From a virus: DNA of 63,019 nucleotides. This document shows positions 29,811 through 60,209 of this stretch, one piece after another. Numbering within the stretch: the stretch's first letter is position 1; every line of letters starts with the position of its first letter. A program made the translations under genes and the position numbers. Under the pieces are notes generated by a model. The model did not search any database, was not told the origin of the DNA, and worked only from the letters and a program-made list of their open reading frames with translations. The DNA lies in IMG/VR virus record IMGVR_UViG_3300037089_000131; one strand, 5' to 3'.

Positions 29811-30845
29811 ATGGAAAGACGCAGCTTTTTTCAGGCAATACTGGGCGGGACGGCAGCCATCTTCGGGAGCAAGCTCGCAATGGCCACTACGTCAGCCCCC
29901 ATGGGTCTATCCCTGCCCAAGACCATCGTTACGAGCTATGTCTCACCCGAAACCACGGAGCAGATTAACCTTCTCAGCACCCTTCTCCAAACCCCCCTCG
30001 GCCGACAGCAGCTTGCATTGAGCCTTGGACCAGCCATCCGCCGTCGCCGGGACTACATGAGCCTTGTCCGCAAGGCATTCTGCGTGGTGGACGGTGACAG
30101 CGTCTCCAGCCTCAACGACTTCAACCTGTACGCCATCAGTCCCACGGTTGGGGGGTTTCGCTTCCGCACTGAGGGGGCGAAGGGAATCAAGGCCACCCTT
30201 CCCACTTCCCAGATTTCGTCGAACGTGGTGTTCCCTTTCAAGCATGTGGAGAACCGGCGTTTTGACCTGGTAGCCCGTGCGATTAACCTCGGAAGGGCGG
30301 AGGTGGTTGCGGCCGAAAACTCGCAGATGTTCACTTTGATGGACGCCGTGGTCGAGGAGGACATCGAGTTCGGGTGCTATTTCCTCACCGAGGCACGGTA
30401 CGAGCTATCGAGAAAGGGGGTGGCCAAGGCTAATCTCATCTTTGCTAACCCATTCGATGCCACCGAGATACTCAAGATTGGCCACAGGGTAAACTACGAC
30501 CCCAACTGCACGAGAATAACCCTGAAGACGGGTCTTCTGGGTTATGTGGACGGTGTCGGGCTTTACCAGAGCCGTTCGGTGCCCAAGGGGTATATGTACG
30601 TTACCGGGGAAACCGACCCCACGAGGGTGGAAGATGGTCTTGACGATGCCGTATATGCCGGGTATGTCGCTGACAAGGCAAAGCTAAGCGTGACATCCTA
30701 CGACCCCAGCCACGGCTGGAGCACTATCCCCTCCGAGCGCCATTTTGGATTCATCCTAAGCGAGGAGACGGGGTTCGCCATCAATCCTGATGCGGTGCAG
30801 AGAGTCTCCATGAAGGAGTGGAAGGGCACTGGCTGGAACGTCTAA
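29811..30845 (+). CDS. hypothetical protein with twin-arginine (Tat)-like N-terminus
   Basis: GGAGGAG RBS; MERRSFFQAILGGTAAIFGSKLAMA (RR-x-FF, hydrophobic stretch, AxA). Confidence 0.55.
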   Translation: MERRSFFQAILGGTAAIFGSKLAMATTSAPMGLSLPKTIVTSYVSPETTEQINLLSTLLQTPLGRQQLALSLGPAIRRRRDYMSLVRKAFCVVDGDSVSSLNDFNLYAISPTVGGFRFRTEGAKGIKATLPTSQISSNVVFPFKHVENRRFDLVARAINLGRAEVVAAENSQMFTLMDAVVEEDIEFGCYFLTEARYELSRKGVAKANLIFANPFDATEILKIGHRVNYDPNCTRITLKTGLLGYVDGVGLYQSRSVPKGYMYVTGETDPTRVEDGLDDAVYAGYVADKAKLSVTSYDPSHGWSTIPSERHFGFILSEETGFAINPDAVQRVSMKEWKGTGWNV

Positions 30846-30870
30846 AAGGCACTGGCCATAAAAATATTCC

Positions 30871-30900
30871 TGAAAATTACGACTACCGGGAGTATTATAT
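30871..30900 (+). promoter_or_regulatory. conserved promoter-like element P1 (TGAAAATTACGACTACCGGGAGTATTATAT)
   Basis: Matches the sequence at 61258..61287 at 25 of 30 positions; ends in an extended -10-like GTATTATAT. Confidence 0.5.
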
Positions 30901-30904
30901 GAGT

Positions 30905-31162
30905 GCAAGGCAGTACCGAAGTCTGTAGTTGACCGTTCCGTCCGCAGTTGAGTATGGCCGGGGGGTCTATTTCCAGCCCCCCGGTGCAGTCTCTTGAGGA
31001 AGAAATGAAGAACCTATCGTCCAACTCGTTATCGTCGCTGAGCTATAGTAACTCATTGCTTAGCGTCCTCGTGTTGTCCGATGGGTGGTCGGACGGTTGG
31101 GAAGGGTAAGACCACCAAAATCGGGCAAGACGAGGCCGCTGATGAAGCGGCCATTTTTGTTT
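30905..31162 (+). ncRNA. candidate ~250-nt non-coding transcript between P1 and a terminator, directly upstream of tRNA array 1
   Basis: No plausible ORF; strong hairpins (CCGGGGGG...CCCCCCGG, GGTGGTC...GACCACC); ends at GGCCGC-TGATGAA-GCGGCC + TTTTTGTTT. Confidence 0.35.
31134..31162 (+). terminator. rho-independent terminator
   Basis: GGCCGC/GCGGCC stem followed by ATTTTTGTTTGT. Confidence 0.55.
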
Positions 31163-31250
31163 GTAGGCGTGTCCGAGCGGCAAAGGAGACCGGCTGTAAC
31201 CCGGTTGCCCCATGTGGGCTACGCAGGTTCGAGTCCTGCCGTCTACACCA
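31163..31250 (+). tRNA. tRNA-Tyr(GTA), class II
   Basis: Acceptor GTAGGCG/CGTCTAC; anticodon stem ACCGG/CCGGT with loop CTGTAAC; long variable arm; GCAGGTTCGAGTCCTGC T-arm; CCA encoded. Confidence 0.7.
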
Positions 31251-57842: not shown

Positions 57843-57945
57843 CCTCCTGATTATCGTCTCGATAGGACTCATCCTCCTGTCCATCTTTGTCTCTGCCCTA
57901 CCAGGAAGCCACCCCTTTCATCTCTCTCTGCCTTAGGAGGCGGTT

Positions 57946-58989
57946 GTGAAGCGTATCCTCATCACGGGCGGGGCGGGATTCATTGCCCACCACCTTATCG
58001 ACCATCTCATCCGCAACACTGACTGGGAGATAATTATCCTTGACAAGCTGACCTATGCCTCGGCGGGATTCAACCGGCTGCGGGAGATTGGAGCCTATGA
58101 CAACCCAAGAGTCGAGCTTTACCCCGTTGACATCCGTATGCAGATGGGGAGTGGACTTGAGTCGGAAATCGGAAGAGTGGACTACTTTGTGCATATGGCG
58201 GCTGAAACCCACGTCGATAACTCCATCGTCAACCCAAGGGTCTTCGTCGAGTCCAACGTCATTGGAACTTTTGAAATGCTGGAGCTTGCCCGCAGGCTCC
58301 CCGGACTCCAGAAGTTCCTCTATTTCTCTACAGACGAAGTTTTTGGACCGGCTGCGGACGGAGTGGCTTACAAGGAATGGGACCGTTACAATTCTACCAA
58401 TCCTTACGCCGCAACAAAAGCAGCGGGTGAGGAGCTTGCTCTCGCTTGGGCGAACACGTATAAGCTCCCCCTATTCATTACCCACACGATGAACGCCTTC
58501 GGGGAGCGCCAGCACCCGGAGAAGTTCATCCCCAAGGTCATATCGCATGTCATGACGGATAAGGAAGTCCCCATCCATGCCTACATCAACAAGAAGCGGT
58601 CAGGGAGCCGGTTCTACATCCACTGCCGCAACATTGCCAACGCCGTGCTCTTCCTGCTCTACTACGGAGAGTTCCGGGATAAGTACAACATCGTGGGCGA
58701 GAAGGAGATATCCAACCTTGACCTCGCCCAGCGCATCGCCGCCATCATGGGCAAGCCGCTCAAGTACCAACTGGTGGACTTCCATTCCGCCCGCCCCGGC
58801 CATGACCTGCGTTATGCCCTCGACGGCAGCAAGATGGCGAGCCTGAACTGGAACATCCCGATGAGCTTCGAGGACAGCCTCGCCCGAACGATAAGGTGGA
58901 TGACCAAGCCAGAGCACTACAACTGGCTGGACCTCGGGACGCACGGAAAGATTGGAGACGGCGAGCATGTCGGAGATGTGGCTGGATGA
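57946..58989 (+). CDS. NAD-dependent sugar-nucleotide 4,6-dehydratase/epimerase (RmlB-like)
   Basis: GTG start after GGAGG RBS; Rossmann motif TGGAGFIAHHL; STDEVFG; catalytic YAATKAAGE (YxxxK). Confidence 0.75.
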   Translation: MKRILITGGAGFIAHHLIDHLIRNTDWEIIILDKLTYASAGFNRLREIGAYDNPRVELYPVDIRMQMGSGLESEIGRVDYFVHMAAETHVDNSIVNPRVFVESNVIGTFEMLELARRLPGLQKFLYFSTDEVFGPAADGVAYKEWDRYNSTNPYAATKAAGEELALAWANTYKLPLFITHTMNAFGERQHPEKFIPKVISHVMTDKEVPIHAYINKKRSGSRFYIHCRNIANAVLFLLYYGEFRDKYNIVGEKEISNLDLAQRIAAIMGKPLKYQLVDFHSARPGHDLRYALDGSKMASLNWNIPMSFEDSLARTIRWMTKPEHYNWLDLGTHGKIGDGEHVGDVAG

Positions 58990-59248
58990 CAAGCGACCTG
59001 CGCCCGAGGGGTATATCTGGGTGAAGACAGCGAAGGAAGCCATAGCCCTCCTACAGGAGGGGCAGGTTACCTTCGCCTCCCTTGACCATGACCTTGGCTT
59101 CGGCGGCTCCGGGTATGACGTGGTCTGCTTCATGGAGCGCACCGGACTGTGGCCCACAGATGGTATTAAGATACACAGCATGAACCCTGTCGGCAGGCAG
59201 TACATGCAGATGGCGATAGACCGGCATTACGGGGAGATGAGACGATGA
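58967..59248 (+). CDS. hypothetical protein
   Basis: Internal ATG overlapping the rmlB-like end. Confidence 0.4.
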   Translation: MSEMWLDDKRPAPEGYIWVKTAKEAIALLQEGQVTFASLDHDLGFGGSGYDVVCFMERTGLWPTDGIKIHSMNPVGRQYMQMAIDRHYGEMRR

Positions 59249-59607
59249 ACAGAAGAGGGTTCTTAACAAGGTTGCTGGCAGTCCCGCTCGCCCCCGTGGC
59301 GTTCAAGATAGCCAAGCTGTTCAACCCCTCCTTGCAGCGCATCGCCTGCATCCGTCCCATGGGTACGGTCAGCCTCCTCGCCGACCGGGTCGCTGGCATC
59401 GAGCCACGCTTCATCAGCGTGCCCACGTTCCCGCTCTACAGCAACCCAGTCATAAGTTTGGACGAGATAAAGAGCAGGCGGTTCCAGATGAAGCGCTACG
59501 ATAACGAAATGGTGGCCGCCTATACCGGGCTGGAACGACCGGGGGTCGGCACAATCAAGCACTGGCCAGAGTGGAAGTTTGAGCTTTGGGATAGGAAAAC
59601 AACATGA
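59245..59607 (+). CDS. hypothetical protein with Tat-like N-terminus
   Basis: MNRRGFLTRLLAVPLAPVAFKIA. Confidence 0.45.
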   Translation: MNRRGFLTRLLAVPLAPVAFKIAKLFNPSLQRIACIRPMGTVSLLADRVAGIEPRFISVPTFPLYSNPVISLDEIKSRRFQMKRYDNEMVAAYTGLERPGVGTIKHWPEWKFELWDRKTT

Positions 59608-60209
59608 GAAGACGAAGCTTTCTAGCCGGGCTGCTTGCAGTCCCGGCAGTCGGGATGGGCATCAAGAGCCTTGAGGGGAGCACCCCGGAACTCAGACCAC
59701 CCCTCCTCTACCCCCATGAGTTCGTCGATACGAGCCACCACTTCCGCAGCAGCATGGAGTGCGACATCTTCCGGGCGCTCGTCATCGAGGATTGCAGCCT
59801 GCGCTCCTATGAGGACAGGAAGAAGATGGCAAGGGTCATGTCACCGGTCGTCAGCCAGCACATGGAGTACTGGCGGCAGAAGACCAACACCCATCCCTAC
59901 TTCGACGAAAGGATGGAAGTGTTCGAGTGGGTCCAGTTCCCGCTGTCTCAACTTAAAGAGCACAATGACACCCACTCATGGCAGAAGCTCTCCAACTCCT
60001 TAGCCATATTCGTGGCCAGCAAGATGTGGGACTCGGCTTGCCGCCTCCAGAACACCGAATCCATACTGACACAGGATATAAGACCCTCCGGGTCAGGCTT
60101 CCGACCAGGCACCGTCGTCCTCCCCGCCGACAAACCCGACCTGCGCATGATAGGATTCAACATCGTCACCTTCCGGCCAGAGAACATCAGAATGAGGAGA
60201 GCATCATGA
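59604..60209 (+). CDS. hypothetical protein with Tat-like N-terminus (N-terminal paralog of the previous gene)
   Basis: MRRRSFLAGLLAVPAVGMGIKS; ATGA overlap. Confidence 0.45.
   Translation: MRRRSFLAGLLAVPAVGMGIKSLEGSTPELRPPLLYPHEFVDTSHHFRSSMECDIFRALVIEDCSLRSYEDRKKMARVMSPVVSQHMEYWRQKTNTHPYFDERMEVFEWVQFPLSQLKEHNDTHSWQKLSNSLAIFVASKMWDSACRLQNTESILTQDIRPSGSGFRPGTVVLPADKPDLRMIGFNIVTFRPENIRMRRAS

Follow-up and report, generated by a model that had tools for sequence, protein, structure and literature searches.

Twin-arginine-like N-termini on relatives of the major capsid protein in a huge tailed phage

Why would a tailed phage place what looks like a bacterial export signal at the head of three of its proteins? 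The question is raised by the IMG/VR virus record IMGVR_UViG_3300037089_000131, a stretch of 63,019 nucleotides (hereafter the window) that is part of the genome of a huge tailed phage from soil, with about 57% G+C and 20 tRNA genes. Three plus-strand genes, at 29811-30845, 59245-59607 and 59604-60209, encode proteins of 344, 120 and 201 residues, here called P1, P2 and P3, each of which begins with a twin-arginine (RR) pair in a setting that resembles the signals of the twin-arginine translocation (Tat) pathway. All three open reading frames (ORFs), which a first-pass annotation had singled out for these N-termini, are indeed present with the N-termini described and with ATG starts, and the public gene calls (P0001, P0008, P0007) agree on all three start sites. 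What that annotation overlooked is that P1, P2 and, probably, P3 are related to the major capsid protein (MCP) of huge phages. In tailed phages, capsid proteins are the classic example of proteins that assemble in the cytoplasm, and their apparent presence here shifts the question from secreted phage proteins to capsid paralogues with an export-type signal. The reading favoured here, to which we give about an even chance of being correct, is that the RR N-termini are genuine and selected Tat-type targeting peptides, carried by accessory capsid paralogues and not by ordinary secreted enzymes. What would be new is the combination, a known type of signal on a known fold.

Capsid homology of the three proteins

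P1 (29811-30845) is best described as a full-length HK97-fold MCP homologue of the family that includes gp27 of phage G and gp334 of Tunturi_5, a jumbo phage of Tunturiibacter (Acidobacteriota). The assignment of the fold rests on sequence homology, as an AlphaFold2 model built from a six-sequence alignment had a mean predicted local distance difference test score (pLDDT) of 32.7 and was unusable. The protein matches the major head protein family phrog_2522 (E 1.5e-6) and, in tblastn, Tunturi_5 gp334 (35% identity, E 6e-30) and more weakly phage G gp27, and a family profile made from P1 and its relatives covers residues 5-280 of the phage G capsid chain 6wkk_A in the PDB (E 1.9e-38). Against NCBIfam model NF042927 the match runs from profile position 3 to 279 of 280, starting at P1 residue 50 (E 1.6e-5), with a score of 24 bits that is under the 80-bit equivalog cutoff. 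P1 retains motifs that are conserved in the N-arm and core of MCPs that assemble, and its MCP matches start at about residue 44-50, which leaves the first 47 or so residues as an add-on. This add-on is made up of a Tat-type peptide (residues 1-25, MERRSFFQAILGGTAAIFGSKLAMA; 29811-29885, plus strand), with a putative signal-peptidase site after AMA25, and of a non-conserved linker between peptide and fold (residues 26-47; 29886-29951, plus strand) that lies outside every MCP profile match.

P2 (59245-59607) and P3 (59604-60209) each start in an ATGA overlap with the stop codon of the preceding gene, so that translational coupling is probable for both. When an MCP hidden Markov model (HMM) built without P1 was searched against all six-frame ORFs of the window, P1 ranked first (4.8e-85), P2 second (E 3.8e-5) and P3 third (E 0.027). 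In P2 an RR peptide (residues 1-23, MNRRGFLTRLLAVPLAPVAFKIA) is followed by a spacer of 22 residues and a copy of MCP sequence (residues 46-120). The copy corresponds to MCP residues of about 86-150, which by generic HK97 topology would be the strand returning from the E-loop together with the spine helix. Alignment of P2 with hhalign against alignment A1 gave a probability of 79.5% (E 1.5e-5), and its sole PDB match was phage G gp27, at the matching segment. In tblastn, residues 46 to 116 or 120 align to each canonical MCP gene among the matches listed (the first 60), with about 33% identity over 71-75 residues and E values of about 2e-5. By these alignments P2 evidently carries an MCP-derived segment. 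Part of the spacer and the beginning of the copy (residues 31-56, 59335-59412, RIACIRPMGTVSLLADRVAGIEPRF) also resemble a motif of class II (B12-dependent) ribonucleotide reductases (TIGR02504, E 0.0098; E 0.0016 for the P2 homologue P0010), a likeness that may reflect a patchwork of gene fragments or a chance match.

The case of P3 is less clear-cut. Its RR peptide (residues 1-22, MRRRSFLAGLLAVPAVGMGIKS) heads a divergent body and a C-terminal segment (residues 172-196, VLPADKPDLRMIGFNI...) in which 11 of 16 residues are identical to residues 264-279 of the Tunturi_5 MCP (VMSADRPDLRQIGFSI; pairwise BLASTP E 1e-4). A single-sequence AlphaFold2 model of P3 was unusable (mean pLDDT 34.6). Of the tblastn matches, which covered 154 loci at an E of at most 10, the 25 best all lie at the 3' end of a canonical MCP gene, each with an E value of at least 0.09. 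A link between P3 and the C-terminal strand of the MCP is, on these grounds, suggestive. The MCP-like segments of P2 and P3 are nearer to canonical MCPs than to P1.

Two other derivations were considered and set aside. If P2 were an N-terminally truncated MCP, its RR pair would correspond to the N-arm motif 'RRRRDYMS'; the offset fits, but the alignments support residues 46-120 only, and nothing in the charged N-arm motif corresponds to the hydrophobic residues that follow RR in P2. P2 and P3 together (120 + 201 = 321 residues) are close in length to a canonical MCP (about 319 residues) and might thus be a split or decayed copy of one, but P3 has an RR peptide of its own and the related locus L090 retains two separate RR genes.

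The shared peptide and its conservation

The N-termini of P1, P2 and P3 share a common layout, consisting of the initial methionine, one residue, R3-R4, one residue, F6, F or L at position 7, an uncharged stretch of 11-16 residues and then Lys21. The RR-x-F-(L/F) motif proposed in the first-pass annotation is borne out by E-RR-S-FF-Q in P1, N-RR-G-FL-T in P2 and R-RR-S-FL-A in P3. The hydrophobic region (h-region) proposed for all three stands for P1 and P3, where 16 uncharged residues rich in G, A, T and P follow the RR pair, and is somewhat curtailed in P2, where 11 uncharged residues follow R9, slightly under the usual length of about 12-20. The AxA-like cleavage site that had been read into each of them is present in P1 (AMA/T, the slash marking the cut), the candidate sites of P2 (KIA/K) and P3 (IKS/L or GMG/I) being non-canonical. 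P2 and P3 are, as had been noted, paralogues at the N-terminus, with 13 of the first 31 aligned residues identical (BLASTP E 3e-4), and their mutual resemblance is limited to this peptide.

Such N-termini are rare. A strict pattern (a start codon, at most four residues, RR-x-F-[FLIVM] and at least 10 uncharged residues, in an ORF of at least 50 residues) has three matches in the six frames of the window, which are exactly P1, P2 and P3, against a mean of 0.04 matches per window after codon shuffling; in 1.39 Mb of related huge-phage loci it has one, a junk antisense match with a TTG start. The three proteins also rank top in a loose six-frame scan of the whole window. Chance is ruled out as the source of three RR N-termini in the window.

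Full-length proteins with the same architecture form a clade with 35-51% identity, the RR-type clade, comprising P1, P0002 (= L007, L093-96), P0003, L008 (= L097-99), P0011, P0017 and P0058. The extension that characterises them reads M-[ED]-R-R-x-F-[FLI], followed by a G/A/T-rich stretch, a K or R near residue 21, a variable linker and then the fold. Mean pairwise identity among the seven is 42.5% in the RR peptide, 10.9% in the linker (which also varies in length), 44.2% in the N-arm and 32.0% in the rest of the core. A conserved peptide joined to a variable linker is the pattern that would be expected for a targeting peptide on a flexible tether.

Twelve RR N-termini were aligned in all, from P1-type and P2-type proteins, P3, the gene after the P2 homologue in L090, and P0035. 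The two arginines and the phenylalanine are invariant in all 12, the RR pair sits at residues 3-4 in 11, and a basic residue occupies position 21 in eight, with an arginine at 22 in a ninth. The arginine codons of the RR pair switch synonymously between AGA, CGG, CGC, AGG and CGA, and because arginine is kept through these switches, selection acts on the peptide and not on a DNA element. The P2 homologue of L090 (P0010) is 52% identical to P2 overall and keeps 22 of its first 26 residues, the 26 codons differing by eight synonymous and four conservative changes. The gene that overlaps the end of this homologue (1586-1693 of L090) starts with an RR peptide too (MRRREFFSWLGGVGAAGMMAGD); since L090 thus also has two overlapping RR genes, the tandem pair itself is conserved. 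Upstream of the pair in L090 lies a radical-SAM-like ORF with a CxxxCxxC motif (71-1009). P0035 represents a fourth form, in which a textbook 'SRRGFLRGLLTVGATAVVAP' heads an MCP N-arm and spine helix.

Canonical MCPs begin differently. In IMG/VR, the N-terminus of 79 of 79 canonical loci is 'MANLSRTQQQ...' or a variant close to it and coincides with the start of the fold, and in a metagenome scan the matches to canonical loci begin at P1 query residue 20-48 and not at residue 1, these being starts of alignments and not of genes. As canonical MCPs start at the fold, the RR extension is probably a gain specific to the clade. Another large clade of the MCP superfamily (proteins among P0020-P0097; L091 1024-2049) has a tip of its own, 'M[DN]R[YF]xIxLGKxPPPP', on a low-complexity linker rich in Lys and Pro, and this 'MDRYxIxLGK'-type tip may be an assembly tether. 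Homology between it and the RR tip was considered and rejected, only M-x-R being common to the two.

These results bear on the simplest objection, that the RR N-termini are artefacts of mis-called starts or belong to decaying fragments without function. P2 and P3 do resemble patchworks of MCP fragments, the ribonucleotide reductase likeness of P2 adds to that impression, and P3 has no homologues beyond identical copies. Set against this are the excess of strict matches over the shuffled expectation, the good ribosome-binding or coupling contexts (P1 is preceded by the Shine-Dalgarno sequence GGAGGAG at 29799-29805, plus strand, with a 5-nt spacer to its ATG), the retention of the peptide in homologues of 35-52% identity in the face of synonymous codon turnover, and the tandem RR pair kept in L090. 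We consider the objection barely credible, and for P1 and P2 it is already largely refuted.

Export signal or assembly tether

In every feature that can be read from a sequence the peptides appear to match the Tat design, the consensus of which is [S/T]-R-R-x-F-L-K within the first ~35 residues. That of P1 combines the motif, its position, a short and weakly hydrophobic h-region, a basic residue after it and the AMA/T site. A profile of the 12 peptides over 26 positions, searched against 177,635 PDB sequences, returned eight matches, six of them at or near the chain N-terminus, with E values of 0.07-1.3 that are marginal, as expected for 26 positions. The six N-terminal matches (FccB sulfide dehydrogenase, PsbU twice, T. 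fusca DyP, a fucosidase and an oxidoreductase) are what we take to be known or likely substrates of Tat or thylakoid Tat.

Arginines followed by a hydrophobic stretch could also serve as a membrane anchor independent of Tat, whether a Sec/YidC-type signal or an uncleaved signal-anchor, the RR pair then supplying positive-inside charge and nothing else. The weak -3/-1 sites of P2, P3 and P0035 would suit an anchor, and these phages seem to use ordinary signals as well, since a 118-residue ORF in L008 (4372-4725, minus strand; the same in L097) has an Arg-rich n-region with RR, a hydrophobic core and a lipobox-like LGQGC, probably a lipoprotein signal. The h-regions of the RR peptides, however, with 11-16 residues rich in G, A, T and P, are too short and too weakly hydrophobic for such a role and are typical of Tat, not of Sec. 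Moreover, the phenylalanine at RR+2 is invariant, and the basic residue that follows the h-region in eight of the 12 peptides is a 'Sec-avoidance' feature. An anchor of this kind is thus quite unlikely.

A number of observations nevertheless weigh against a Tat role. Of the three proteins, P3 alone was picked up by the Pfam model TAT_signal (PF10518), with 12.5 bits where the cutoff is 22.7 (E 0.16), and no Tat-signal model of NCBIfam matched P1, P2 or P3; the missed cutoff weakens formal membership among Tat signals, not the resemblance, and HMMs of short peptides overlook many true signals. P1 and P0017 (ALA/T) have a canonical A-x-A cleavage site, which in P2, P3 and P0035 is weak or missing. 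There is hardly any n-region, with the RR pair pinned at residues 3-4 in nearly all of the peptides; an RR pair so near the start occurs also in the Tat signals of E. coli CueO and MdoD, yet it is atypical. We know of no capsid protein with a role outside the cytoplasm. Tat turns away cargo that is not folded, and truncated copies of the MCP, such as those in P2 and P3, may be unable to fold on their own. The 63-kb window, itself only part of the genome, showed no canonical MCP, so that P1 could be the only capsid protein of this phage. Last, all of the RR-bearing proteins found are MCP-related, with no ordinary periplasmic enzyme among them, and a capsid-specific docking peptide therefore fits equally well. 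A regex scan of the window found no TatA-like ORF, and literature searches found no report of Tat signals on capsid proteins or phage capsid paralogues, or in jumbo phages.

The docking peptide deserves to be spelled out. The RR-hydrophobic segment would be a propeptide or tether, internal to the phage, that docks capsid-family proteins to the scaffold, the portal, the protease, the prohead interior or the inner face of the membrane; it would be removed by the prohead protease, and the resemblance to Tat signals would have arisen by convergence. P1 could be a head or vertex protein, like T4 gp24 beside gp23, and P2 and P3 could be minor head components. Apart from the uniformly MCP-derived cargo, this explanation draws on the clade with the 'M[DN]R[YF]xIxLGKxPPPP' tip, by which a conserved tip on a flexible linker would be a recurring capsid design, on the N-arm and core motifs that P1 has kept, and on the absence of a canonical MCP from the window. 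It also draws on locus L092, where an MCP-like gene lies immediately upstream of the RR-type gene for P0058, much as the genes for gp23 and gp24 are adjacent in T4.

Several points tell against such a docking role. To our knowledge, the combination of RR-x-F-[FL], a short uncharged h-region and then a basic residue occurs in no capsid-targeting sequence or propeptide, and in T4 both the capsid-targeting sequence and the delta domains look different from the RR peptide. Canonical MCPs of the family need no extension, and it is Tat signals that the 12-peptide profile retrieves from the PDB. The gene neighbourhoods point the same way, as RR-type genes lie outside head-gene modules. While the canonical MCP gene of Tunturi_5 stands between a head protease and tail genes, the P1 gene stands between a divergently oriented papain-like peptidase and a tRNA array, that for P0011 (L088) among some 35 tiny ORFs, and those for P0002 (L007) and its L008 counterpart beside giant ORFs of 2.1-2.4 thousand residues and tRNA-metabolism genes. 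In L089, which like L092 is a short contig, a canonical MCP (phrog_2522, E 1.9e-49) is followed three genes on by the truncated RR-type P0035 (phrog_2522, E 1.3e-12), so that both kinds occur side by side. As judged by eye, the full-length RR-types also lack the motif 'LPxGALPxYDKD', which in most of the superfamily follows the N-arm, a regex for the motif having also missed many canonical members that visibly have it; the loss is consistent with a divergent function. On balance an assembly peptide seems possible but doubtful.

On the favoured reading, P1 is a complete MCP paralogue that gained 47 N-terminal residues, made up of an RR peptide of 21-25 residues and a linker. P2 is an RR peptide fused to a copy of the MCP strand that returns from the E-loop and the spine helix, and P3 an RR peptide on a strongly diverged body that has probably retained an MCP-like C-terminal strand. 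The proteins would fold in the cytoplasm first, the TatBC receptor of the host would recognise RR-x-F-[FL] with the short G/A/T-rich h-region, and the proteins would then enter the cytoplasmic membrane or pass through it. P1 would probably be cut after AMA25, and P2 and P3 may remain tethered to the membrane owing to their poor -3/-1 sites. Their place of action would be the cell envelope, and they would not be building blocks of the virion head.

One can go further and suppose that some huge soil phages use the host Tat system to move folded HK97 proteins out, and that P1, with the truncated P2 and P3, assembles at the membrane or in the periplasm into a lattice or nanocompartment resembling a capsid, an extracytoplasmic structure that would be phage-made and encapsulin-like. 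Taken as a whole, this scenario is unlikely. More broadly, a conserved clade of capsid paralogues with an export-type signal would mean that the HK97 fold had taken on an envelope function, for which the exclusion of other phages, the remodelling of the envelope and the formation of an extracytoplasmic shell are candidates. Should the peptide instead tether proteins during assembly, it would represent a novel type of capsid-targeting sequence, common to a main-fold paralogue and to fragments, and would inform how the heads of huge phages are built.

Genomic setting and known systems

The surroundings of the three genes add some features of their own. A terminator-like hairpin (29739-29776, plus strand; a 12-bp stem with 8 GC pairs and a T-run) lies about 35 nt upstream of the P1 start and may be an attenuator, the end of an upstream transcript or an insulator. 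Two 17-nt direct repeats (GACGTTTCCGGGACACG), 60 nt apart at 29521-29597 (plus strand), precede it; hairpin and repeats may be regulatory elements or part of a P1 5' leader. The papain-like cysteine peptidase (Pfam Peptidase_C1; 28587-29402, minus strand), which is divergent from P1, is without a signal peptide and has no copy in the other RR-type loci. The giant ORFs of two of these loci lie directly downstream of the RR-type MCP gene and antisense to it. That of L008 (11475-17909, minus strand) has 2144 residues and, by eye, Cys-rich repeats, and that of L007 (4233-11399, minus strand) has 2388 residues and a weak match to a SET domain.

An ORF of 823 residues at 33461-35932 (minus strand) resembles the major vault protein (MVP), with matches to MVP_shoulder (83.5 bits) and Vault_3 (42.5 bits) that both exceed the Pfam gathering scores, and is a case of a vault-like protein in a huge phage. 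The first-pass annotation had suggested, as an alternative to export, that the shared peptide loads P1, P2 and P3 as cargo into a shell of this protein. The ORF is encoded on the strand opposite to P1, at a distance of 2.6 kb downstream of it, and short terminal peptides are used as cargo tags in encapsulin-type systems. The suggestion finds no support, however, in the distribution of the genes, since homologues of the MVP-like gene are absent from the other RR-type loci examined (L007, L008, L088-L090 and L092-L099) and RR-type genes hence occur without it, at least within about 10 kb on either side. P2 and P3 are, besides, 24 kb away from it, and known vault cargo binds via a domain, not via an N-terminal RR peptide. 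A cargo tag for this shell is therefore very improbable.

The 20 tRNA genes, several of them duplicated, are arranged in two plus-strand arrays (31163-33123 and 61546-62733), the first of which contains an HNH endonuclease gene (32118-32600). One tRNA (31405-31489) barely reaches the Rfam threshold for tRNA-Sec (47.6 bits against 47) and is called Tyr-GTA by ARAGORN. A polynucleotide kinase-phosphatase (6961-8058) and a T4-type RNA ligase (9210-10667), both on the plus strand, form a tRNA-repair pair that adjoins the conserved gene phrog_10079 (11336-12517), and an SNF2 helicase is also encoded in the window. Megablast of positions 27000-33500 against a phage collection gave zero matches. With the patterns used, no relatives of the RR-type MCPs were found in 185,579 species genomes, and there is consequently no evidence of prophage or cellular RR-type copies and no assignment of a host. 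The link to Tunturi_5, the peat, soil and wood samples and the similar G+C and tRNA load suggest Acidobacteriota, as a guess.

How, then, does this system compare with those already known? The Tat signals of bacteria and thylakoids (PF10518, TIGR01409; E. coli TorA, SufI, CueO and MdoD) share with the phage peptides a [polar]-R-R-x-F-[LFI] motif, an h-region of 11-16 residues rich in G, A and T, a basic residue and, in several of the phage peptides, small residues at -3/-1 (AMA in P1). The phage peptides differ in having almost no n-region, in falling below the curated HMM cutoff and in heading capsid-derived cargo. Phage G gp27 and Tunturi_5 gp334 (HK97 fold; 6wkk; phrog_2522) align end to end with the P1 core, at residues of about 48-340, and segments of these MCPs are matched by P2 (residues 46-120) and P3 (residues 172-196). 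The canonical proteins lie in head and tail modules and lack an extension, whereas P1-type proteins have the RR peptide and linker and non-structural neighbours.

In phage T4, gp24, the capsid-targeting sequence and the propeptides offer parallels in a second MCP paralogue per genome, sometimes adjacent (as in L092), and in a short N-terminal peptide common to several head-associated proteins. The T4 peptides, being amphipathic or acidic, show neither the RR-x-F motif nor a hydrophobic h-region, and no protease or scaffold gene was found near the RR-type genes in this comparison. Capsid homologues of phage satellites, such as Ccm of the cos-type phage-inducible chromosomal islands (PICIs), are likewise extra, diverged or partial HK97 proteins that could interact with a canonical MCP. 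Ccm-type proteins lack a signal peptide and do their work in the cytoplasm, and nothing here indicates a satellite. Encapsulin cargo loading differs in that the RR peptide is also borne by the shell-like protein, P1, whose gene is 28 kb from those of P2 and P3, and none of the three proteins has a Pfam or NCBIfam match to the encapsulin family.

The closest precedent for a capsid-fold protein with a signal peptide is the anammox encapsulin cEnc of Kuenenia stuttgartiensis, an HK97-fold shell, together with its cargo NIR-HAO, both of which have N-terminal signal peptides that were called reminiscent of twin-arginine signals (10.1101/085266). cEnc is cellular and not phage-encoded, the peptides as printed lack an RR pair, the protein has no sequence relation to P1, and it is fused to a cytochrome and has a defined enzyme cargo. 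What makes it comparable is that its capsid-fold shell presumably has to cross a membrane, and if the RR peptides do act as Tat signals, phage capsids would be linked to signal-bearing encapsulins from the phage side.

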